A DNA stretch of 46,955 bases from an uncultured Candidatus Saccharibacteria bacterium. Its GTDB lineage: Bacteria; Patescibacteriota; Minisyncoccia; Phycocordibacterales; UBA2100. Below, in pieces: positions 1 to 46,510 of this stretch (positions are counted from its first letter, which is position 1; each line of letters begins with the position of its first letter). Where the stretch lies: the NCBI GenBank assembly GCA_964623775.1, contig CAZUVH010000001.1, positions 106,790 to 153,744 on the forward strand, written 5' to 3'. The position numbers and the translations under genes are program-made. The notes under the pieces were generated by a model. It worked only from the letters and a program-made list of their open reading frames with translations. It had not been told where the DNA came from and searched no databases.

Positions 1-809
1 TTTTATATGTGACATCAGAGCGTTTCGCTGTTGATTATATTAATGCGGTACGTGCAGGACGGGCCAATAGCTTCAAGGATCAGTACCGCCAATATGACGT
101 CCTTATCATGGATGATGTGCAGTTTATAGCCAACACCGAGAAGACCCAGGAAGAGTTGTTTCATCTCTTTAACGCTCTTCACGATAACAATAAACAGATT
201 GTTTTTTCTTCCGATAAACACCCATCTCTTTTACCTGGTTTTGAAGATCGTCTGAAAGGGCGCTTTAGTGCGGGAATGATTGCAGAGATACCAGAACCAG
301 ATGTGGAGTCTAGAATAGCTATAATTAGAGCCAAATTAGAGCAACACGGCTTCTCGATTCCTGATGATGTAATTCAATACATTGCAGAGAATGTACGTGG
401 AAACATTCGTGAATTAGAGGGTGTTTTAAACATGATTGTTTGCAAATCCCAACTCAAAGGAAAGGCGGTTTCTCACACAGATGTGCGATCTCTTATAAAA
501 CACAATATAAAACCAAATCGAGGAATTTCTGTCGATGAAGTAGTCCGTCGCATCGCACAATATTACGAAATTGCGGAAAAAAGCATTTATGAGAAAACTC
601 GAAAGAAGGAGGTGGTAAAGCCGCGACAGATAATTATGTATATTTTACGTGAAGAGTTTGGTGTCTCATATCCTTCAATAGGGGAGAAGCTCGGTGGACG
701 CGACCACACAACCGTTATTCACTCCTGCGAGAAAATAAAAGAGGAGATTAAGACAAATAATTCCCTTGAACAGGAGCTCGATCATATCCGCACACTTATC
801 CACGCATGA
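1..809 (+). CDS. dnaA: Chromosomal replication initiator DnaA (5'-truncated by window edge)
   Basis: Walker B DVLIMDDVQF, QEELFHLFN, sensor NIRELEG and domain IV GGRDHTTVIH; lies upstream of dnaN. Confidence 0.98.
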   Translation, partial: LYVTSERFAVDYINAVRAGRANSFKDQYRQYDVLIMDDVQFIANTEKTQEELFHLFNALHDNNKQIVFSSDKHPSLLPGFEDRLKGRFSAGMIAEIPEPDVESRIAIIRAKLEQHGFSIPDDVIQYIAENVRGNIRELEGVLNMIVCKSQLKGKAVSHTDVRSLIKHNIKPNRGISVDEVVRRIAQYYEIAEKSIYEKTRKKEVVKPRQIIMYILREEFGVSYPSIGEKLGGRDHTTVIHSCEKIKEEIKTNNSLEQELDHIRTLIHA

Positions 810-1050
810 TCTGTTGATTACCTGTTAATTATCTGTTGATTGAGTATTGAACTACCGTGTTGATAAGAAAAGGAAAACAATCTCATAAACACAAATATAA
901 AAACTATGGCCGCAAAAAATCACTATTCACAGATCGCCACGAATCTTATTAGTGACTTTTCAACACTTTTTATAGACTCTAAAACCTTTTATTTAAGCGT
1001 TAAAAAGGTTTTATACACAAATCCACACCGCTAGTAGTAATAGTAAGATT
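796..1050. other. Replication origin oriC (dnaA-dnaN intergenic region)
   Basis: AT-rich, with several DnaA-box-like 9-mers (TTATCCACG 796-804, TGTTGATAA 858-866, CTATTCACA 923-931, TTTTCAACA 957-965, TTATACACA 1011-1019, AAATCCACA 1019-1027), followed by NTA trinucleotide repeats. Confidence 0.85.
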
Positions 1051-1064
1051 TTATATCCAAAAGT

Positions 1065-2162
1065 ATGAAGATGAGTACAACAAAAGAAAAACTACTTCAG
1101 GCGGTGTTACTCGCAGAACGTCTGACTGAGAAAAAGGAGTCTCTCCCATTACTTTCATGTATTTATATCGAGTGCGGAAAAGACTGTGTAATAAGCGCAA
1201 CGAATCTTGAAGCGGGTATTGAAGTTGTTGTCCCAGGCGAGATATCAGAAAAAGGAGCGGTAGCAGTACCTGCGGGTGTACTTTCACAAACGGTTCGCTC
1301 GATCAGTGGAGATAAAATCACACTTAAGACAGAAGACAGTAATCTTCTTATTGAATCCCGAGGCACCAAGACTCTCATAAAAGCCGTGCCACATGATGAT
1401 TTTCCAAAACTCTCTCTTAATTCTAAAGAGAGAAAAATATCTCTTTCTCGCGAAAGTCTCCTGTATGGTATTAGTACGGTTTCGTACGCTGCCTCACCGT
1501 CAATGATTCGTCCGGAGCTCGGCAGTGTGTATATATCTATTAAATCAGGTTCTATTACAACTGTTGCGACAGACTCTTTCCGTCTCGCGGAGAAAAAAAT
1601 ACCTGCAGCCGCGGGTAAAAATGATGCAGAAATATTACTTCCTATAAAACACACATCAGAACTGGTTTATATCCTTGAACACACCGACTCAGATCAAATA
1701 GATATTGCGATAGATGATTCTCAAATAGTTGTAGAAATTCCAGGAACGGTCTATATGTCCCGTGTCGTAGATAGTTCGTTTCCAAACTATAAAGAAATTA
1801 TGCCTAAAACATTCAATACTGAGGCAACGATCTTAAAAAGCGATTTTACCGAAATGTTGCGCAAAGCACGGGTGTTTTCCGGCACTGATCAACATATCGG
1901 ACTCCATGTATATCCTAAGAAAAAAATATTCAGCGCGACCGCACGTAGTAGTGACGTAGGAGAAATGTCTGATTCAATTGATGCGGCGCTCTCCGGTGAG
2001 GATATGGATATTAATTTTCATATCGGATATCTCTCCGACTGTCTCTCAAGTATCGATTCAGAATCAATCACACTTAAATTCTCAAGTGTCGGGAGGCCAC
2101 TTATTATCCAAGGAGTCTCGGACTCGAGTTTCACGTATCTCGTGATGCCCCTCAATAGATAA
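1065..2162 (+). CDS. dnaN: DNA polymerase III beta sliding clamp
   Basis: ATNLE, VATDSFRLAE and C-terminal YLVMPL motifs; 365 aa; synteny with dnaA. Confidence 0.97.
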   Translation: MKMSTTKEKLLQAVLLAERLTEKKESLPLLSCIYIECGKDCVISATNLEAGIEVVVPGEISEKGAVAVPAGVLSQTVRSISGDKITLKTEDSNLLIESRGTKTLIKAVPHDDFPKLSLNSKERKISLSRESLLYGISTVSYAASPSMIRPELGSVYISIKSGSITTVATDSFRLAEKKIPAAAGKNDAEILLPIKHTSELVYILEHTDSDQIDIAIDDSQIVVEIPGTVYMSRVVDSSFPNYKEIMPKTFNTEATILKSDFTEMLRKARVFSGTDQHIGLHVYPKKKIFSATARSSDVGEMSDSIDAALSGEDMDINFHIGYLSDCLSSIDSESITLKFSSVGRPLIIQGVSDSSFTYLVMPLNR

Positions 2163-8024: not shown

Positions 8025-8120
8025 TAGTGTAGCCTAACCCCTTTTAAGGTATAAACAACTATCCTATATCGTTAAAAAATGGTGCTGGGTGGGATGCCGC
8101 ACCGTCTTGTTTGTTCATAC

Positions 8121-25861: not shown

Positions 25862-26350
25862 ATGAGCACCGTCCGCAACTGCACGCTCGTCTTCTTGATC
25901 AAGCGGCAGGGTGGCGTTATCACACATATATGCCTTGCGATGAAGAAACGCGGCTTCGGAGCTGGCAAATGGAACGGTGCGGGCGGCAAGGTGGAGAAAG
26001 GTGAGACGATCGAGGAAGCTGCGGTACGCGAAGCAAAAGAAGAGATCGGCGTCGATCTGCACGGAATTTCCAAAATTGGCGAGCTGATGTTTTACTTCTC
26101 GCACAATCCGGCGTGGGATATGCTCGTGCACGCTTATTTTTGTGAAAAATGGAGTGGCGAGCCTCTTGAAAGTGAGGAGATGCGACCAGAGTGGTTCCCC
26201 GTATCGGAAATCCCGTTTGCATCTATGTGGCCGGATGATGAATTTTGGATACCGCACGTCCTGAAAGGGGAGAAGGTAAAAGCGAGTTTTACGTTTAGTG
26301 AAAATGACGTGATTCACGCAAAAGACGTGCAGCTTGTTGAGAATCTTTAA
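25862..26350 (+). CDS. NUDIX hydrolase, MTH1-like 8-oxo-dGTP diphosphatase
   Basis: KKRGFGAGKWNGAGGKVEKGETIEEAAVREAKEEIG Nudix box; EEMRPEWF; MWPDD. Confidence 0.9.
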   Translation: MSTVRNCTLVFLIKRQGGVITHICLAMKKRGFGAGKWNGAGGKVEKGETIEEAAVREAKEEIGVDLHGISKIGELMFYFSHNPAWDMLVHAYFCEKWSGEPLESEEMRPEWFPVSEIPFASMWPDDEFWIPHVLKGEKVKASFTFSENDVIHAKDVQLVENL

Positions 26351-39550: not shown

Positions 39551-39611
39551 ATTGACTTCGTCGAGTGGTGCCTATAGCTTGTCGGCAGAGCGATCATTAA
39601 CAGAAAGCTTC

Positions 39612-39684
39612 GTGGCGGGATGCCACCTCTTCCACTCCACCTCGCAGGCGGGATGCGTGCGAGTACAAAGCGGCGGGATGCCGC
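39612..39684 (+). promoter_or_regulatory. Three tandem hairpins with GGGAU loops in a 5' leader
   Basis: gtggc-GGGAT-gccac, ctcgcaggc-GGGAT-gcgtgcgag, gcggc-GGGAT-gccgc, then AAGGAG. Confidence 0.75.
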
Positions 39685-39697
39685 AAGGAGAACTACG

Positions 39698-40165
39698 ATG
39701 GTACGTTACAGCAGTAAGTTGGATGCCTTCAAAAAAGAGTTCCCGTTCATCCAGTACTACATTTCGAATCTCGATGTGCGGACAGCGCAGGTCAAGCGCG
39801 TTGATGAGGAGTTGCTCAATCTGACTCGCTACCGAGTCTGGCATGAAGAGCCCCTACTGGTACCCATGTACAGATGGTCGAGGATTTTCCTCTTGAACGC
39901 AGCAGGGAGGACGATCGAAGAGGTCTGTAAAAACGAATCAGTCTGGGAGACGTTAAGACGCCTGATCTTTTTTGATCGTGCGAGAGCAGATGATATTTGC
40001 TTCATCATGGTCCTGAGTCCCGAAGAATACTCGAATTTCTTTGCTTCGACCTGGGAGCTCACTGTCCACAAACTACCAAAGGGCCGCACAATGTCGTCTT
40101 GGCTTGAAGAGCGAAGGCTCGCGGCTGAGGGTGAATTGAGGACCCAGACGGAAGTAGAGGGTTAA
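39698..40165 (+). CDS. Hypothetical protein, probable paralog of 44148-44747
   Basis: AAGGAG SD before ATG 39698; terminator at about 40174-40204; shared motif order with the 44148 protein. Confidence 0.7.
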   Translation: MVRYSSKLDAFKKEFPFIQYYISNLDVRTAQVKRVDEELLNLTRYRVWHEEPLLVPMYRWSRIFLLNAAGRTIEEVCKNESVWETLRRLIFFDRARADDICFIMVLSPEEYSNFFASTWELTVHKLPKGRTMSSWLEERRLAAEGELRTQTEVEG

Positions 40166-40295
40166 GAGCACTACCCGTGCCTGGACTGAAGCTCCAGGCA
40201 CGGGCTTGACTTTTGGCTGGAATGCGCTATCATTCTCACTATCAAAACGCCGCAAGGCGTTTTAAAAATGGCAAAATTATCCCTAATTTATTCCT

Positions 40296-40607
40296 ATGAA
40301 CGCAATCACAAAATACCTTCAAGATACCCGCGCAGAGATGCGACATGTCGCATGGCCGACGCAAATGCAGACGATCATCTACACCGTCTTGGTGGCGCTG
40401 CTCTCTGTCGGTGTCGCGCTCTACCTCGGTCTCTTTGATTACATTTTTACCTCCACACTCGCCCGCACACTCGACGCTCTTCCGTCGACAGGCATTCAAG
40501 TGACTCAGCAGCCGATCGCACCCACAGGCTCTACAGAGACGACTCCGCTTGCACCTGTCGAGAACGCGGGCACGTTTAACATCGTTCCGAGCGAGACCAA
40601 TCAATAA
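40296..40607 (+). CDS. secE: Preprotein translocase subunit SecE
   Basis: YLQDTRAEMRHVAWPT, TM, GLFD; upstream of nusG. Confidence 0.93.
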   Translation: MNAITKYLQDTRAEMRHVAWPTQMQTIIYTVLVALLSVGVALYLGLFDYIFTSTLARTLDALPSTGIQVTQQPIAPTGSTETTPLAPVENAGTFNIVPSETNQ

Positions 40608-40613
40608 ATCTAT

Positions 40614-41159
40614 ATGGCAAAACAAACATACGGCACAGAAAGACAGTGGTACGCGATTCACACCTACTCGGGATACGAAGACGCGGTAGCGCGCAATCTC
40701 AAGCAGCGTGTCGATTCATTCGGCATGGGCGATAAGATCTTCAACGTCGTTGTGCCTTCAGAGAAGAAGATCAAGATCAAAAATGGCCGCAAGACCGAGA
40801 CGAAAGAAAAAATCTTCCCAGGCTACGTGCTCGTCGATATGATCGCGACCGATGAAGCGTGGAGCGTCGTGCGCAACACGCCGCAGGTCACGGGATTCGT
40901 CGGGACCGCCAATCAGGCAGTGCCACTCGAGCCGGCAGAAGTAGACAAGATTTTGAAGCGCGTCGGCGGCGACATTGTGCGCCACGCGATCGACCTCGCA
41001 CTCGATGACGCAGTGATCATCATCGACGGCCCGTTCAAGGATCTCGAAGGCAAGGTAGGGGAGATCGACGAAGAGCGCGGCAAGGTCAAAGTCCTCGTCC
41101 CGATGTTCGGCCGCGAGACTCCGGTAGAGCTCGAAGCTGATCAGGTGCAGCGCGTTTAA
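40614..41159 (+). CDS. nusG: Transcription termination/antitermination factor NusG
   Basis: WYAIHTYSGYE, FPGYVLV, VRNTPQVTGFVG, MFGRETPVEL. Confidence 0.98.
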   Translation: MAKQTYGTERQWYAIHTYSGYEDAVARNLKQRVDSFGMGDKIFNVVVPSEKKIKIKNGRKTETKEKIFPGYVLVDMIATDEAWSVVRNTPQVTGFVGTANQAVPLEPAEVDKILKRVGGDIVRHAIDLALDDAVIIIDGPFKDLEGKVGEIDEERGKVKVLVPMFGRETPVELEADQVQRV

Positions 41160-41214
41160 TTAAAAAATAGTGACATGCTATGCTGACCTCCAGGTAACAC
41201 TGGAGGTTTTTGCA

Positions 41215-41685
41215 ATGAGTGAAGGTGAAAAAGGTTGCGGCGAAGAAGGCCATGTGTGCTCGTGCGCGAGCGATCCGGCGCCTCGTCCTGGCTCGGACCT
41301 CGCAATGTCTCTCGAGGGATGGATCATCCATGAGCTCGGGGTGACCGAAGAGCGATTGCAGATGCAAAGCAGGGATATGGTGAATGTCACGTACGGCGTG
41401 GTGACCGCGATCCATATGTGCATCATGCACGTGGCAATCACCGCGCGGCACGACGAAATTGCGGCTGCATACAAGAAGGCCGTGCTCGATGTTGCCCAGG
41501 CTGCCGGCAGCGAGGACGAAGGAGTTCAATTTCTAAAATACATCGGTCTCGGCGTTTTCCGGAAGCTCTCGCTTGAAAAAGCGGGCAAGTCATCCTTCGC
41601 AGATGACAAGTGGAATGATTACTGGATGGAACTCAATACTGTGGGGGGCAAGTTTGAAGCCGAAATGAAACGAGTGTGGGGATAA
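41215..41685 (+). CDS. Hypothetical helical protein
   Basis: TGCTATGCT promoter, GGAGG SD, ATG 41215, followed by a palindromic terminator. Confidence 0.6.
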   Translation: MSEGEKGCGEEGHVCSCASDPAPRPGSDLAMSLEGWIIHELGVTEERLQMQSRDMVNVTYGVVTAIHMCIMHVAITARHDEIAAAYKKAVLDVAQAAGSEDEGVQFLKYIGLGVFRKLSLEKAGKSSFADDKWNDYWMELNTVGGKFEAEMKRVWG

Positions 41686-41691
41686 AAATAG

Positions 41692-41719
41692 TGCCCCGGC
41701 GTACATGTACGCCGGGGCA
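41692..41719. terminator. Perfect palindrome, bidirectional terminator
   Basis: tgccccggcgtaca-tgtacgccggggca flanked by A and T tracts between convergent genes. Confidence 0.7.
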
Positions 41720-41725
41720 ATTTTG

Positions 41726-43444
41726 TTATTCGAACGGAGGAGCAATAGCCATTTCTGACGCGAACTTCACGCGCCACAGCGTTTTATCCAGCGACTCGAT
41801 GTCTTTCGGCATAAACACGGCGACATTCACGTGCGATACGTATTTCTGCAGCGCTTGCCTCGTGCTCGCACCGACACCATCGCCGGAAGATCCAGAGAGA
41901 GCAGAGCCGCCGAAGGCCATGCCGACCGTCGCACCGGTGATGCGCGTGTTCACGTACTTCTGCGCCGCGCCGCGATAGTGTAGGCAGAAATCGAGCGCAT
42001 ATTCAGGATCGCGAGTGAAGATGCCCCCCGTGAGGCCAAAGAGGCATGTCTCGAAGATCCGCCGTGCTTCATCGCGCGTATCCGTGAACCACAGCGTGAC
42101 GCACATGCCGAAGATTTCGGTCGAGCGAAGCTGCCAAAGCAGCTTGTCGTCTTTGTACGCTTTTTGCTGCGCGACCAGGATTCGAGGTGCAAAATCGAAA
42201 GCATCCCGATTCCTGATCTCCTTAGACCAATACGTATGGACGAGCCCCTCGCCGGTGAGCTGCCGTACCGTTGCGGTACAGCGGTCGGCCGCATCCTTCG
42301 ATATGAGTGCGCCGCACTGATTGGCAAGGTATTTCACATCACCGAAGCTCACATCGAGAAGAGCTTTAATGAACTTGCGCTCAAACTCAACCCGTACTTT
42401 GTTGTCGATGATGAGGTGCCCGAGGTGCGAACACGTCTGACCGTTGTTGTTGATGAGCGAGTCGCGCGCGGCGATTACGGCTGCATCGATGTCCGCATCA
42501 TCAGCGACGATCAGCGCGTTGCATCCGCTCGTTTCGGCCGCGATTTCCTGCAGCTTGCCGCCATGGGGGCGCGGCTTGCTCATGACGTCGCGCTGGATAT
42601 TCCAGTACGCATCGTAGCTGCCGGTGAAAGTATAGCCGTTGACGTTTTCGTTCTCGAGCAGGAATCGTGCCATATCCGCTCCGTGGCCGGAGAGGAAATT
42701 CACGACGCCGTTGTTCTCGAGGCCGCATGCATCAAAGGCCGATTGAACGACCTTGTACATCATGTACGCCTGCAACGGCGTGTGGCCGGATGCCTTCATT
42801 ACAATTGCATTGCCGGTTACGAGTGCCATCGCGATCTTGTCCATCGGGATCGCTTGAGCAAAATTGAACGGCTCAATGTCGACGATGACACCCTTGGGCT
42901 CCCAGACAGTGCCGTTGAAATTGCACATAAATTCCGGCGCGATCGGCGAAGCCTCTGAGTACATTTCTTCCGCGAGCAGTGCCGCGCTGTTGCAAAAATC
43001 AATCACTTCGATGAACTCGCCGACGCCGTTGGGGAAGGGGCGTTTGCCGCCTTCGAGCGCCATGAGTGCGAGGAAGAGCCACATCTGATCACTGATCAGG
43101 TGCGCGATCGTGCGCACGAGCTTCACCCGGTCGGAGACTTTCACTTTTGCCCAGCGGGCCTGCGCTGCTTTCACAGCGATGAGCAAGTCGTTGAGACGTT
43201 CCTGTTCAGCTGGATCCGAAAGATCGTGTTTCGGAAAGAGAACTAAAGGGGCACTTGGATTGTTGGGATCGACTGTTGCGTACGAAACGCTATTGAGAGC
43301 AGTGATTTCTTTACCCGCAATAATATGCGGGTAAATCTTGTTCCTTGGTATGCAGAGTGCGTGCGCCTGCTGCAGGCCCGCATAGAATGCGTCCTGCTCG
43401 AGCTTGCTCTTGCCTGTCGGGTAGACCTTGCGTGGTTCAAACAC
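41726..43444 (-). CDS. Aldehyde dehydrogenase, P5C dehydrogenase (RocA/PruA)-like, divergent
   Basis: [23 protein letters not shown] (Glu), GQTCS (Cys), [13 protein letters not shown]; start set at GTG 43444 after AGGAG. Confidence 0.85.
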
Positions 43445-43541
43445 TGCATTTCTCCTTTTGTTCACACTATTACCTGGGGCCACGCTACATTTTGGACCAA
43501 GTATTGTCAAAGCGGCTGAGACAGGATATAGTAGCCGCCAC

Positions 43542-43964
43542 ATGGCAAAAGAGGTAACCAAAATCATCAAGCTGCAGATTGAGGCCGGCAAGGCTACGCC
43601 TGCGCCGCCGGTTGGCACCGCGCTTGGTCCTGCGGGCGTCAACATCGGCGAATTCGTCAACCAGTTCAACAACCAGACCCGCCCACTCATGGGGAGCACC
43701 CTCCCGGTCCTTCTCACAGTCTACAAAGACCGCACCTTCACCTTCATCGTCAAGAAGCCGCCAGCCTCGCGCGCGATTTTGAAGAAATTGGGCATCGAGA
43801 AGGGCTCGACCAAGCCTCAGAACAAGATCGCAAAGCTCACCAAGCAGCAGCTCACCGAGCTCGCGACCGAGAAGATGGACGACCTCAACACCTCTGACAT
43901 CGAACGTGCCAAAAAGATCATCGCTGGCACTGCGCGATCAATGGGGATCGATTCGGACCTCTAA
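43542..43964 (+). CDS. rplK: 50S ribosomal protein L11
   Basis: [21 protein letters not shown]...[10 protein letters not shown]. Confidence 0.98.
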
Positions 43965-43982
43965 AATTCACAAACAAGTTTC

Positions 43983-44017
43983 AAGAGGCGGCACAGAAAG
44001 GTGCCGCCTCTTGTTTT
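43983..44017 (+). terminator. Intrinsic terminator after rplK
   Basis: caagaggcggcac-agaaag-gtgccgcctcttg followed by tttt. Confidence 0.8.
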
Positions 44018-44059
44018 AGTACAAGAAACATATATAAAGTCGCAAGCTAACGCACCGTC

Positions 44060-44195
44060 GCGTGTCGCTTCGGCGCGGGATAGCGCTCTCCGGAAGCGGC
44101 GTGTCGCCGCTTTCCTAAAACCGGCGTGTCGCCGGAGGAGGATTGCAATGGGAATGAGAGAAATCAGAGCCAAGATCCACATGGGGCGTGTCGCC
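44060..44195 (+). promoter_or_regulatory. Repeated GGC-GUGUC-GCC hairpins plus one GGGAUA hairpin in the leader and early CDS
   Basis: GCGTGTCGC at 44060, 44099, 44124 and 44186; gcgc-GGGATA-gcgc at 44073-44086. Confidence 0.75.
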
Positions 44196-44747
44196 GTAAG
44201 GCGAGCGGTTCGGAAAATTCTCAGGACATCGCCAGCGAGCTGGGACCACGTCGTTCGATTTGCACAAGACAAACGGACTCGCTGGACACCGGACATGATC
44301 CCGCTCGCTCGGCAGATGTATCTTTGGTACGGCCATAAGCCCATCGATCGATTGGGTAATGTGCCGCCCGAGAGTGCTATGCGAGGACATGTGTACCTCG
44401 TGGCGCATGATGGTGAGTTCCTCGCATACGTCGTCTCGCGTTCAGTGTTCGTCGATACGACTTGGGAAGATGTACTTCGGACAATAGTTGAGCTTGAAAG
44501 CCCCGATCGCGTCGCGTACGTCGCGCACGCGTACAAGGATTCTCACTGGGCTCACCCGCTCAGGTACAATTCCTACGGTTACTACGTTTGGAAGATGCCG
44601 CGTGAGCAGAGCCCTCTTGCGTGGGCAGAGTGGCATCTCGATTGGCTTGCAAAAGATCGTGCGGAAAAGCGCAGCGCGCGCGAAGCGAGAGACGCAGAGT
44701 ACAACGCAGCTGTGAATGCGCAGCACAACGCACTGTACGACGTCTGA
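44148..44747 (+). CDS. Hypothetical protein, probable paralog of 39698-40165
   Basis: GGAGGAGG SD before ATG 44148; terminator at about 44763-44790. Confidence 0.7.
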   Translation: MGMREIRAKIHMGRVAVRRAVRKILRTSPASWDHVVRFAQDKRTRWTPDMIPLARQMYLWYGHKPIDRLGNVPPESAMRGHVYLVAHDGEFLAYVVSRSVFVDTTWEDVLRTIVELESPDRVAYVAHAYKDSHWAHPLRYNSYGYYVWKMPREQSPLAWAEWHLDWLAKDRAEKRSAREARDAEYNAAVNAQHNALYDV

Positions 44748-44793
44748 TCTTTACGAAAAGAGAAAAGCCCCGACGAAAGTCGGGGCTTTTAAA

Positions 44794-45906
44794 TTACGGT
44801 CGCCATGCGAGATTGGCGAATGCGCGGTTCGTGTAATTACGGTCACTCGTCACTTCGCGCTCAATGTTGAGGAACGGGGGAAGGACGAGCTTTTGTGCCC
44901 TGTCAGTGAGCTCGATCTCGAGCAGGTAGACGATGTGATTACCGAGCGGAATGCAGTCGAGCTCAAAGTACTGGTTTTCGTACACAAAGCAGTGCCGGTG
45001 CTTTTTCACAATACGTGTGTTCGGCAAGATGAAATCGAGGCTCCACCGGTACTGGTCGGCGGTGATGAACTTTTCGTACTCGATATTTTTGCCAACAACG
45101 ATTTCTTTTTTCACCGTATGGAAGTACACATACTTGCCGTACTGTCCACGCTGGCGCACGCGTGGCGTCGCCTTTGGGTCTGCTGAGAAGAGATATGCCT
45201 GATCGATATCGATTTTCTGTGCGAATACCGGGAGCGATGCGAAATCGACAGGTGCGCAGAGGAATTTTCGCTCGTCTTCGATCGGCACCGGAATCCCAAG
45301 CACCGCGCAGATTTCTTGCTCGATCCTTTTGAGTTTTCCTGCCCAATCGGTCGAGTTGTCGATCACACGCAGGTGCGGATGACCGACCCACGCTTTGAGC
45401 GTGGCCTCATCCATGACACGCGCCTGGTCGACGTCCTCGAGTCGGTGCGGGTTGTTGTGCTTCAGTTGATCGTACAGATCAGGACGATCGTAGGCGAGCG
45501 AACGCAGAAAAATCGCAGCCTTGTAGCGGCGATCTCGCGCCTCAATAGGGTCGAGATTGACTTCGCTCAAAATTTCTTCGTAGAGCCCATTTGGTGAGTA
45601 CGGCTCGCAATCGGGTACGCCGCGGTTGCAAAGCACGAGCGGTAGCGGGTGGTTGCTTTCGAACGCTGCTCGTTTTGCGGCATCCTCAAGATGTACTGTA
45701 GTCAGTATGACGCCGCGCTGGAAGGTTTTCAGGGGTAGGTTGCTCGGCTTCAAATTACTCGACATATGGAGTGTCGCGGATTCTGTCGTGTAGAACGGAA
45801 GGTAGCCGAGGTCACCGAATTTTTGGACGATGAAAGGCTTGCATCCATCTTTACCACTGAGCGGTCCGCCGGGAACTGCTATGACCGGGACTTCTTGATC
45901 CGACAT
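44794..45906 (-). CDS. P-loop NTPase/kinase (AAA_28-like) fused to a CYTH domain
   Basis: GGPLSGKD, ESAT, CNRG, WVGHPHLRVIDNS; CYTH motifs EDERKF, RVRQRG, FELD, LLEIE. Confidence 0.8.
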   Translation of the reverse strand: MSDQEVPVIAVPGGPLSGKDGCKPFIVQKFGDLGYLPFYTTESATLHMSSNLKPSNLPLKTFQRGVILTTVHLEDAAKRAAFESNHPLPLVLCNRGVPDCEPYSPNGLYEEILSEVNLDPIEARDRRYKAAIFLRSLAYDRPDLYDQLKHNNPHRLEDVDQARVMDEATLKAWVGHPHLRVIDNSTDWAGKLKRIEQEICAVLGIPVPIEDERKFLCAPVDFASLPVFAQKIDIDQAYLFSADPKATPRVRQRGQYGKYVYFHTVKKEIVVGKNIEYEKFITADQYRWSLDFILPNTRIVKKHRHCFVYENQYFELDCIPLGNHIVYLLEIELTDRAQKLVLPPFLNIEREVTSDRNYTNRAFANLAWRP

Positions 45907-46003
45907 GACTGACCTCCTTGTTTCAAAGTTCTGTCCGGCCTTGAGAATATCATGAAAATAAAAACCCGGTCACATGACCGGGTTTTAGAAATGAGCGAGG
46001 GGA

Positions 46004-46510
46004 CTAGTCGACGCCAAAGCTCCACTCGATCGCGCGCCGTTTTTTCGGGGCGTAGGTGTCGGGGTGAAGGTCGTGCACTTTGATCAGGCTTTCGCGCCAG
46101 CTCGCTCGTTTGTCGAGCTCGCTTTTTGTGAAGTGACCAGGATCTCCATCTCGCATCTGCTTTTCCAGCCGGGCGATAATTTTTGCGGCATCAAGGAGAT
46201 CAAGGTCGACTGAGTAAGAGATGACTCCGTCATCGGAGGCAACTTCGCCGACGTTGTGCACGATTTCTCCTGTCATGCAGTCGATAAAGAAAGTGCCTCC
46301 TCCCTTACCACACAGAATCGGCCACAGACCATACTTGTAGGCTTTTCCGTAGTCGTCGCTGTATCCGCCGCGCCCGTCGGCCTGGAGTGCAAGCCAAGGA
46401 ACCCGCTGCCAGCTCTTTAGCTGTAAGCGTACGTATTCGCGGATCTTGACCGCAAGTTTCTTGCGATGCCACAGGATTGAGTTCACGGTGCCTTTCAGAT
46501 TTCCACTCAT
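46004..46510 (-). CDS. Hypothetical protein
   Basis: 168-aa ORF with GGAGGAG SD and a downstream terminator at 45961-45986. Confidence 0.65.
   Translation of the reverse strand: MSGNLKGTVNSILWHRKKLAVKIREYVRLQLKSWQRVPWLALQADGRGGYSDDYGKAYKYGLWPILCGKGGGTFFIDCMTGEIVHNVGEVASDDGVISYSVDLDLLDAAKIIARLEKQMRDGDPGHFTKSELDKRASWRESLIKVHDLHPDTYAPKKRRAIEWSFGVD

Follow-up and report, generated by a model that had tools for sequence, protein, structure and literature searches.

A 46,955-nucleotide (nt) stretch of the genome of an uncultured Candidatus Saccharibacteria bacterium (GenBank assembly GCA_964623775.1, contig CAZUVH010000001.1, positions 106,790–153,744; hereafter the window, in whose numbering all coordinates are given) contains two single-gene units, A and B, at 39552–44790. 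In each, the gene follows a leader with tandem short hairpins that share a loop sequence, the last hairpin touching the Shine–Dalgarno (SD) sequence. Gene A belongs to an unannotated protein family, of which gene B is probably a very divergent member. Hairpins of the same kind stand in front of family genes elsewhere and in front of phage head genes, and the motif is far more widespread than the two units in the window. We read the hairpins, tentatively and with something short of even confidence, as protein-bound translational operators, most simply autoregulatory ones. New here are the protein family, the RNA motif, likewise unannotated, and the link of this motif to genes for head scaffolding and major head proteins in many uncultivated phages.

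Two units in the window share one leader design

Both units lie on the forward strand. Unit A begins with promoter-like hexamers seen by eye only (TTGACT, then an imperfect −10 element; 39552–39580). Three hairpins follow, recognized by inspection and in the minimum free energy (MFE) fold: A1 (gtggc-GGGAT-gccac, 39612–39626), with a stem of 5 base pairs (bp); A2 (39641–39663), with nine stem positions, one of them a G-G mismatch; and A3 (gcggc-GGGAT-gccgc, 39670–39684), again with a 5-bp stem. All three expose a GGGAU loop, a pentaloop closed by G-C and C-G pairs. Hairpin A3 abuts the SD sequence AAGGAG (39685–39690), which lies 7 nt before the ATG of gene A (39698–40165; 155 amino acids); the distance from motif to ATG is 16 nt. 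A terminator was called by scan at 40174–40204.

Unit B repeats this arrangement with another loop. Its promoter-like hexamers (TTGTTT-N16-TATAAA, 44011–44038), also read by eye only, are followed by a weak GUGUC copy at ∼44060 with two to four pairs and by a gcgc-GGGATA-gcgc hairpin with a 4-bp stem and a GGGAUA hexaloop (44073–44086). Hairpin B1 (44092–44115) has a 9-bp stem and a GUGUC loop that folds as a UGU triloop on a G-C pair, and hairpin B2 (ccggc-GTGTC-gccgg, 44121–44135) has a 5-bp stem whose 3′ arm runs into the SD sequence GGAGGAGGA (44134–44142). Gene B (44148–44747, ATG at 44148; 199 amino acids) carries a further weak GUGUC copy with three base pairs inside its coding sequence (approximately 44185–44195) and is followed by a bidirectional terminator called by scan (44763–44790). 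The database gene call for gene B begins at residue 50.

The original prediction had listed these hairpins, and all were found in place: three in unit A and, in unit B, two good ones and the GGGAUA hairpin, the copies at 44060 and within the coding sequence being the weak ones. Of the promoter-to-terminator design that it proposed, the terminators are called at both units, while neither promoter was called in a consensus scan of the window. The predicted contact of the last hairpin with a strong SD sequence holds in both units and recurs at the family loci that were found by protein.

The motifs are confined to the two units in the host genome

Within the window, the 9-mer GCGGGATGC occurs four times (0.61 expected) and the 9-mer GCGTGTCGC six times (0.93 expected), and none of 100 shuffles reached either count. 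In the 1.46-Mb host assembly both copies of the 11-mer GGCGGGATGCC fall in unit A, as do three of the six copies of the 11-mer GGCGTGTCGCC in unit B. The loops themselves are uncommon: among 24,226 genome hairpins with stems of 5 bp or longer, GGGAU was found in 13 and GUGUC in 24, the mean being ∼24 per loop sequence. A scan for three or more perfect hairpins with the same loop missed both units because each has only two perfect-stem copies; a k-mer scan flagged both. In 68 genome regions some 8-mer is present three times within 160 nt; six candidates from these regions were inspected, and the leader-hairpin design was seen in units A and B alone. For a covariance model derived from 26 hairpins of the family (see below), the unit A copies rank top in the genome, and it gave nothing credible there beyond the units, its next match lying inside a 475-amino-acid coding frame. 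The motifs are thus confined to units A and B, other matches being coding or at chance level, and they are therefore not elements of the repetitive extragenic palindrome type; this generic genome-wide repeat, the alternative named alongside the prediction, is rejected.

Tandem GCGGGATGC copies were also sought in 400 genomes of the phylum; the only matches were a tandem repeat of 7 nt (G095) and a pair that is probably due to chance (G228). Three sequencing runs contain a stretch identical to this one and may be where it came from, and short contigs ∼98% like gene B are present in a fourth; the leaders in the sequencing runs are without variation, so these data yield no covariation. A further GGGAU hairpin to which the prediction had drawn attention, at 8081–8103, does exist, though as a lone hairpin with a U-G closing pair and with no link to the family. 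Behind it come a U-rich run and then promoter-like TTGACA...TATACT, and no family gene is adjacent; the hairpin resembles a terminator.

Gene A belongs to an unannotated protein family

Proteins A and B had been aligned by eye and assigned to an unknown family. Pairwise BLASTP between them is not significant (E value 0.42). In 40 relative genomes, 24 of the same genus, searches with A and B matched only the query itself, and a word-indexed search of 5.8 billion clusters yielded a single relative of A, at 85%, and no relative of B. Species-representative genomes were scanned for two copies of GGCGGGATGCC, the matches listed being mostly coding repeats in G+C-rich genomes. Locus L289, in a Candidatus Paceibacterota record of 39% G+C, was found through the DNA hairpin motif alone. 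It has two GGGAU hairpins, hairpin A3 plus AAGGAG recurs there as an identical string in a different genome, and the open reading frame (ORF) behind the hairpins resembles protein A in an end-to-end alignment (E value 0.002, for a single comparison).

A profile (A2) made from A, its 85% relative and the L289 protein was run against 1.84 billion cluster representatives and matched 86 of them at E ≤ 1e-3, nearly all 150–220 amino acids long and matched over most of their length. An alignment of family members (A3, 76 rows) has the conserved blocks K..AFFKEFPFL, V.R.D..LL, I.LLD..G, ETV..AL.RL, V.YIL and LYK.PK.FTL..W, in proteins of ∼150–215 amino acids. No credible Pfam match was obtained among the 76 members (two lone weak ones had E values of 0.0035 and 0.0054), none of ten family proteins matched NCBIfam, none of seven matched PADLOC, and A and B matched nothing in PHROGs. 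The best E value for the family in a sequence search of the PDB was 0.45, and the ESM Atlas gave no usable match. We conclude that the family of protein A is real and unannotated, as had been proposed.

The place of protein B is less direct. Compared with alignment A3 by hhalign, B aligns over its residues 79–155 with a P value of 1.4e-4 and a probability of 52.6%; by HMMER it scores 12.0 bits against the family profile, a score reached by none of 2000 shuffles, of which the best gave 9.4. The motif order that had been read by eye is recovered by the family profile, and on these sequence comparisons B is a probable, very divergent family member.

Alignment A3 gave a match in five of 400 other genomes of the phylum (two full members, one fragment and two probably false matches); the family is rare. 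Family loci have no conserved neighbour or partner gene beside them and are single-gene cassettes. With this, and with no defence-family match, the protein/RNA-antidote pair that had been suggested as one role for the hairpins has no support. At L289 (3965–8000) the family gene lies beside two ORFs that by eye resemble an IS30-type transposase and a Fic-domain protein, which suggests that it is in a variable region. Two further relationships were considered and rejected: a third paralog at 25862–26350, which has a Nudix-type motif by eye and a profile E value of only 0.21, and homology of the family to phage scaffolding proteins, for which profile comparison gave a probability of 1.5%.

Tandem hairpins recur in front of family genes

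Eleven family loci were found by protein alone, nine in metagenomes by peptide patterns (L349–L357) and two in genomes by profile (L479 and L481), and the 130–170 nt upstream of each were examined. Two or three tandem hairpins are present in eight of the 11 and one hairpin in two, the remaining locus (L351) being atypical, with a lone GGAGA-loop hairpin seen by eye; the hairpins thus accompany the homologues, as the original prediction supposed. With units A and B and L289 added, tandem hairpins occur at 11 of 14 loci. The last hairpin ends 0–3 nt before a strong SD sequence in family leaders, and at nine of the 14 loci its loop starts 21–25 nt before the start codon. Most loci have near-consensus hexamers of the TTGACA-N17-TATAAT type, by eye, 100–130 nt upstream. 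No such hairpins lie upstream of the false-positive loci L482 and L483.

The loop is GGGAU in unit A, L289, L353, L354 and L357; GGGAA in L352, L481 and L350, where one of three hairpins has GGGAU; GAGAU or GAGAA in L355 and L356; GUGAU or GCGAU in L349; GGAAU in L479; and GUGUC in unit B. The 15-mer of hairpin A1 recurs exactly as the SD-proximal hairpin of L354 and L357. Loops are alike within one leader even where the stems differ, they differ in type between loci, and two types coexist in the host genome. Such uniformity within a leader combined with variation between loci argues for a partner that varies with the locus and, at the level of sequence, fits cognate recognition. An extra hairpin with the locus's own loop was noted at L355:2936 (GAGAU) and L356:2965 (GAGAA), about +450 to +480 from the gene start, inside the 3′ portion of the family gene or close to it.

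For a wider comparison, 26 hairpins were aligned on their loops, after two A+T-rich candidates without G-C closing pairs had been dropped. Their consensus, C-G-N-R-A-N-G, amounts to a GNRA sequence with one nucleotide added on the 3′ side; by sequence it fits 23 of the 26, and the three unit B copies (GUGUC) are the outliers. In the stems 83% of cells pair, as compared with 59% in shuffles, and 57 cells show double-sided changes, as compared with 22 in shuffles; neither value was reached in any of 500 shuffles, and the covariation score was 0.67 against at most 0.24 in slid controls, a signal that is partly circular since the hairpins were chosen partly for pairing, the outer pairs alone being a fair test.

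These features bear on whether the repeats act as RNA at all. They could be double-stranded DNA operators for a DNA-binding regulator, either as 11-mer direct repeats or as short palindromes. Both 11-mers, GGCGGGATGCC and GGCGTGTCGCC, are partly palindromic, and a GTGTC tandem pattern in IMG/VR matched 75 stretches, a count that has no matched control, which proved to be coding repeats or, mostly, direct repeats without hairpin flanks. Yet changes in the outer stem are compensated while an asymmetric loop stays constant, every copy is on the coding strand, and the sites, which come after the promoter-like hexamers, are in contact with the SD sequence. We consider DNA operators highly improbable. 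Taken together, the SD contact, the compensating stem changes, the constant asymmetric loops and the coding-strand placement downstream of promoter-like hexamers point instead to action at the RNA level, during translation initiation.

Action on RNA could also be that of a small ligand-sensing riboswitch of the mini-ykkC (guanidine-II) type, in which the loops would associate on binding the ligand and change access to the SD sequence. The architecture would be the same, with small repeated hairpins and conserved terminal loops next to the SD sequence, as PMC2864571 describes it. Here, however, the loops are not self-complementary and their sequence varies between loci, copy number ranges from one to five, and an orphan family together with phage head proteins (see below) suggests no shared metabolite. 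This alternative, too, is most unlikely. Pairing of the loops with a site in their own mRNA was considered as well and rejected, since six of 11 mRNAs have no complementary sequence.

The same hairpins precede phage head genes

In IMG/VR, two copies of GGCGGGATGC 6–36 nt apart occur in at least 120 stretches, as compared with eight for the reversed pattern. Some matches are Gly-Gly-Met-Pro coding repeats; among the matches listed, no reading frame is open at 53 of 107 non-redundant clusters. Many of the non-coding copies are hairpins with differing complementary flanks, the last of them 13–22 nt before an ATG with an SD sequence, and the motif-bearing contigs span 43–72% G+C. The GAGAU variant likewise occurs in at least 120 stretches, with 50 non-coding clusters among the matches listed.

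The genes behind these hairpins are head genes. For the GGGAU type, ten of 38 downstream ORFs were tested: eight matched phrog_206 and one phrog_194 with PF06810, all scaffolding proteins, and one had no match. For the GAGAU variant, nine of 14 downstream ORFs and the second gene of phage L077 were tested, giving seven scaffolding and three major head proteins (phrog_10, 212 and 283). Head scaffolding or major head proteins thus account for 19 of the 20 phage ORFs tested. Two complete phage records each have exactly two copies of the 9-mer, both of them in the scaffold leader. In L077 the same loop type precedes both the scaffold and the major head gene, which points to a genome-level rather than a gene-level factor. 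Third copies, which the search did not require, tend to keep the loop of their leader: position 2 of the loop was G in 25, U in six and A in three cases in G-type leaders, and A in 21, U in three, C in two and G in none in A-type leaders, counts that are not independent because many of the phages are related.

Searches with the family profile were negative for five phage records that bear the motif, of which two are complete (E ≤ 1), and for the collected phage stretches, and two family peptide patterns found nothing in IMG/VR. Since two complete phages with the hairpins encode no family member, the hairpin is not read only by the family. This speaks against the exclusive pairing of protein and hairpin that the original prediction implied, as do the identical GGC-GGGAU-GCC hairpins that stand before phage head genes. 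Either one hairpin type has several unrelated proteins as its readers, or its reader is another factor. The motif was not found in four cultured phages with related scaffold genes. The GUGUC loop of unit B is, by sequence, without parallel elsewhere.

These findings are what would be expected if the hairpins were a portable translation or mRNA-stability module placed 5′ of the SD sequence and read by some other factor, with the family protein as its cargo. Conserved host machinery, such as the 30S platform, could be the reader, or else a separate factor that genome or phage encodes; the module would be used by heavily expressed phage head genes and would have been borrowed by the cellular family. 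The abundance of tandem hairpins of both loop variants (at least 120 stretches each, against eight for the reversed GGGAU pattern), the wide range of G+C content, the similar spacing to the start codon in phages and unit A, the unrelated downstream families, the complete phages without a family member and the two leaders of L077 all agree with this proposal. It accounts poorly for the two loop types in one genome, and one invariant partner tolerating any nucleotide would hardly keep loop position 2 uniform in each leader while the stems diverge. The cultured phages show that there is no general requirement for the module, and the mRNAs offer no general loop-complementary site through which it might work. 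We regard such a module as possible, if rather doubtful.

The phage association also raises the idea of boxB-like RNA tethers, at which a factor for processive antitermination or another step of transcription elongation would act on RNA polymerase, not on the ribosome. The 5-bp stem would suit this, as would a pentaloop that is GNRA-like by sequence and the arginine-rich helical N-terminus of protein B (residues 3–27, in a low-confidence single-sequence model), and several phage hairpin sets lie, by eye, directly after a terminator-like hairpin. Nut sites are not located before late head genes, so the position of the phage copies differs from theirs; the fixed contact with the SD sequence points to translation; and no terminator was called between hairpins and gene in unit A or unit B. 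An N-like gene or boxA was not noticed, with no search aimed at them and no usable profile for N proteins in the libraries searched. Cognate loop variants are known for N peptides (PMC12550061) and would agree with the loop variation; overall we find a boxB-like role quite improbable.

A proposed translational operator model

The reading that we favour is that of tandem translational operators. Units A and B would be stand-alone genes of one family, each transcribed with a leader of ∼100 nt that folds into two or three short, G+C-closed hairpins with near-identical purine-rich pentaloops. These would serve as tandem operators for a sequence-specific RNA-binding protein, which, when on the SD-proximal hairpin, would block binding of the 30S subunit. 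Each gene is a cassette of its own with no conserved neighbour, which makes its product the simplest candidate, and translation would then be repressed autogenously. Which paralog reads which leader would be decided by position 2 of the loop or, in unit B, by the whole loop. What has been observed is the family and the hairpins, together with where these lie and how they recur; that they act at the RNA level and are bound by a protein, which protein this is, and in which direction it regulates are what we infer from the observations.

Several findings weigh against this model. The phage data, in which the same hairpin serves unrelated genes in genomes without the family, lower the autoregulatory reading in particular. 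Family proteins that share an exact 15-nt hairpin are only ∼25–30% identical, and loop type does not visibly follow the phylogeny of 12 proteins, in a tree that is poorly resolved; the two GAGA-loop loci, L355 and L356, are not sisters in it. The MFE folds of both leaders include the hairpins, and their whole-leader energies are unexceptional (z −0.99 for unit A and −0.89 for unit B, relative to shuffles). Single-sequence models of A and B are poor (mean predicted local distance difference test scores 46.1 and 45.1), and the covariation signal carries the circularity noted above.

Family proteins might also bind the head-gene leaders of phages. They would then attach to scaffold and capsid messages at infection and prevent head assembly, providing an antiviral defence at the level of translation that recognizes a conserved RNA signal of phages, and would themselves be kept low by autorepression through decoys of the phage operators. 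Paralogs specific for GGGAU and for GUGUC would cover different phages. We think this improbable.

If the hairpins are operators, they would constitute a widespread and simple control point for the synthesis of phage head proteins. The differences in loop between loci would provide natural orthogonal hairpin–protein pairs, possibly of use as a tool. Orphan genes in small genomes of the Patescibacteria type can, on this evidence, carry elaborate regulation.

Surroundings of the units and other repeats

Unit A is flanked by a small membrane ORF and secE, and unit B sits between rplK and a convergent gene. The secE-nusG-rplK cluster is broken up (40296–43964), and unit B rather than rplA comes after rplK. 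Between nusG and rplK lie a 156-amino-acid ORF without a family match (41215–41685) and a long minus-strand ORF (41726 to ∼43450) that by eye is aldehyde dehydrogenase-like. Two minus-strand genes converge on unit B (44794–46510), and both match phage families of unknown function, the 370-amino-acid gene phrog_6660 and weakly AAA_28, and the 168-amino-acid gene phrog_25871. Between rplK and an ORF at the end of the window that by eye is argS-like, this segment may form a small island of mobile or phage origin. The G+C content of window positions 1–2000 is 0.39–0.41, as compared with ∼0.53 in the remaining window.

Other repeats were noted in the course of the scans. Dense direct and inverted TTGTTCCAAGCATTCCAAGCA repeats surround a G+C-rich core of ∼200 nt at G000:C7:22250–22800 and look like the origin iterons of a plasmid or phage; at G000:C16:27080–27255 a repeat array with a 30-nt period forms many same-loop hairpins. 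Among IMG/VR stretches of 35–45% G+C, L142, L143, L151, L153, L160, L161 and similar ones have direct tcgGGCGTGTCGC repeats without complementary flanks, which look like DNA-binding sites rather than hairpins. Seven stretches of ∼70% G+C (L044, L045, L053, L066, L096, L101 and L117) share a conserved element of ∼130 nt with three GGCGGGATGC copies at fixed spacings of 46–48 and 29–30 nt and no SD sequence or start codon close behind; possibly it is a structured RNA of greater size that uses the same unit.

Comparison with known systems

Neither the protein family nor the RNA motif is present in the libraries searched. At Rfam 15 gathering scores the window gave only seven tRNAs and 14 phage loci only a tRNA; for the unit A leader, a search at E ≤ 10 yielded nothing better than noise, well short of gathering scores, and six motif-bearing loci gave no match at E ≤ 1. 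A literature search, which did not cover supplementary files such as those of PMC2864571, found no description of the motif, its letters appearing only in unrelated primers.

CsrA and RsmA act by translational repression at several hairpin loops with GGA, one of them at the SD sequence, and the hairpins described here resemble their sites in both respects. They differ in that the stems and closing pairs are conserved and in that the loops GAGAU and GAGAA (L355 and L356), GYGAU (L349) and GUGUC (unit B) lack GGA. CsrA was not found in the genome, the best PF02599 match scoring 15.8 bits against a cut-off of 27 and lying inside a 394-amino-acid frame, and is excluded as the reader of the hairpins there; the prediction had remarked that GGA loops recall CsrA sites and that GUGUC loops do not.

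Mini-ykkC (guanidine-II) and the pan motif, as presented in PMC2864571, also consist of small repeated hairpins with conserved features in 5′ leaders, and mini-ykkC was at first taken as protein-binding because of its small repeated hairpins with conserved loops. Loop sequence, gene context and variable copy number set the present hairpins apart: guanidine-II has ACGR loops and guanidine-related genes, whereas here the loops are GNRAN or GUGUC and the genes are those of an orphan family or of phage heads.

With the N–boxB systems of lambda and P22 there is likeness in the short hairpin, a pentaloop that is GNRA-like by sequence, the occurrence in phages and the loop variants. According to PMC12550061, GNRA-like pentaloops with a looped-out base are protein-recognition elements in solved structures, and boxB loop variants are read by cognate N peptides. 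In the hairpins described here the extra nucleotide would follow the A (GNRA+N), and the hairpins come in tandem, touching the SD sequence of orphan cellular genes or of late head genes, where boxB lies in early nut sites.

The remaining comparison is with autogenous operators, such as the levivirus coat protein–replicase hairpin, the leaders of ribosomal proteins and P22 scaffolding. In the present case the same hairpin serves unrelated genes, there are two to five tandem copies, and the binder is a candidate. Autoregulation of the P22 scaffolding protein was reportedly described by Wyckoff and Casjens in 1985, and work on P22 is said to have placed the control of this protein after transcription; we know of no defined RNA element for the control of a scaffolding protein. 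The likeness lies in the hairpin at the ribosome site, which in autogenous operators is bound by a protein of the same message or genome, the scaffolding gene being the classic phage case.

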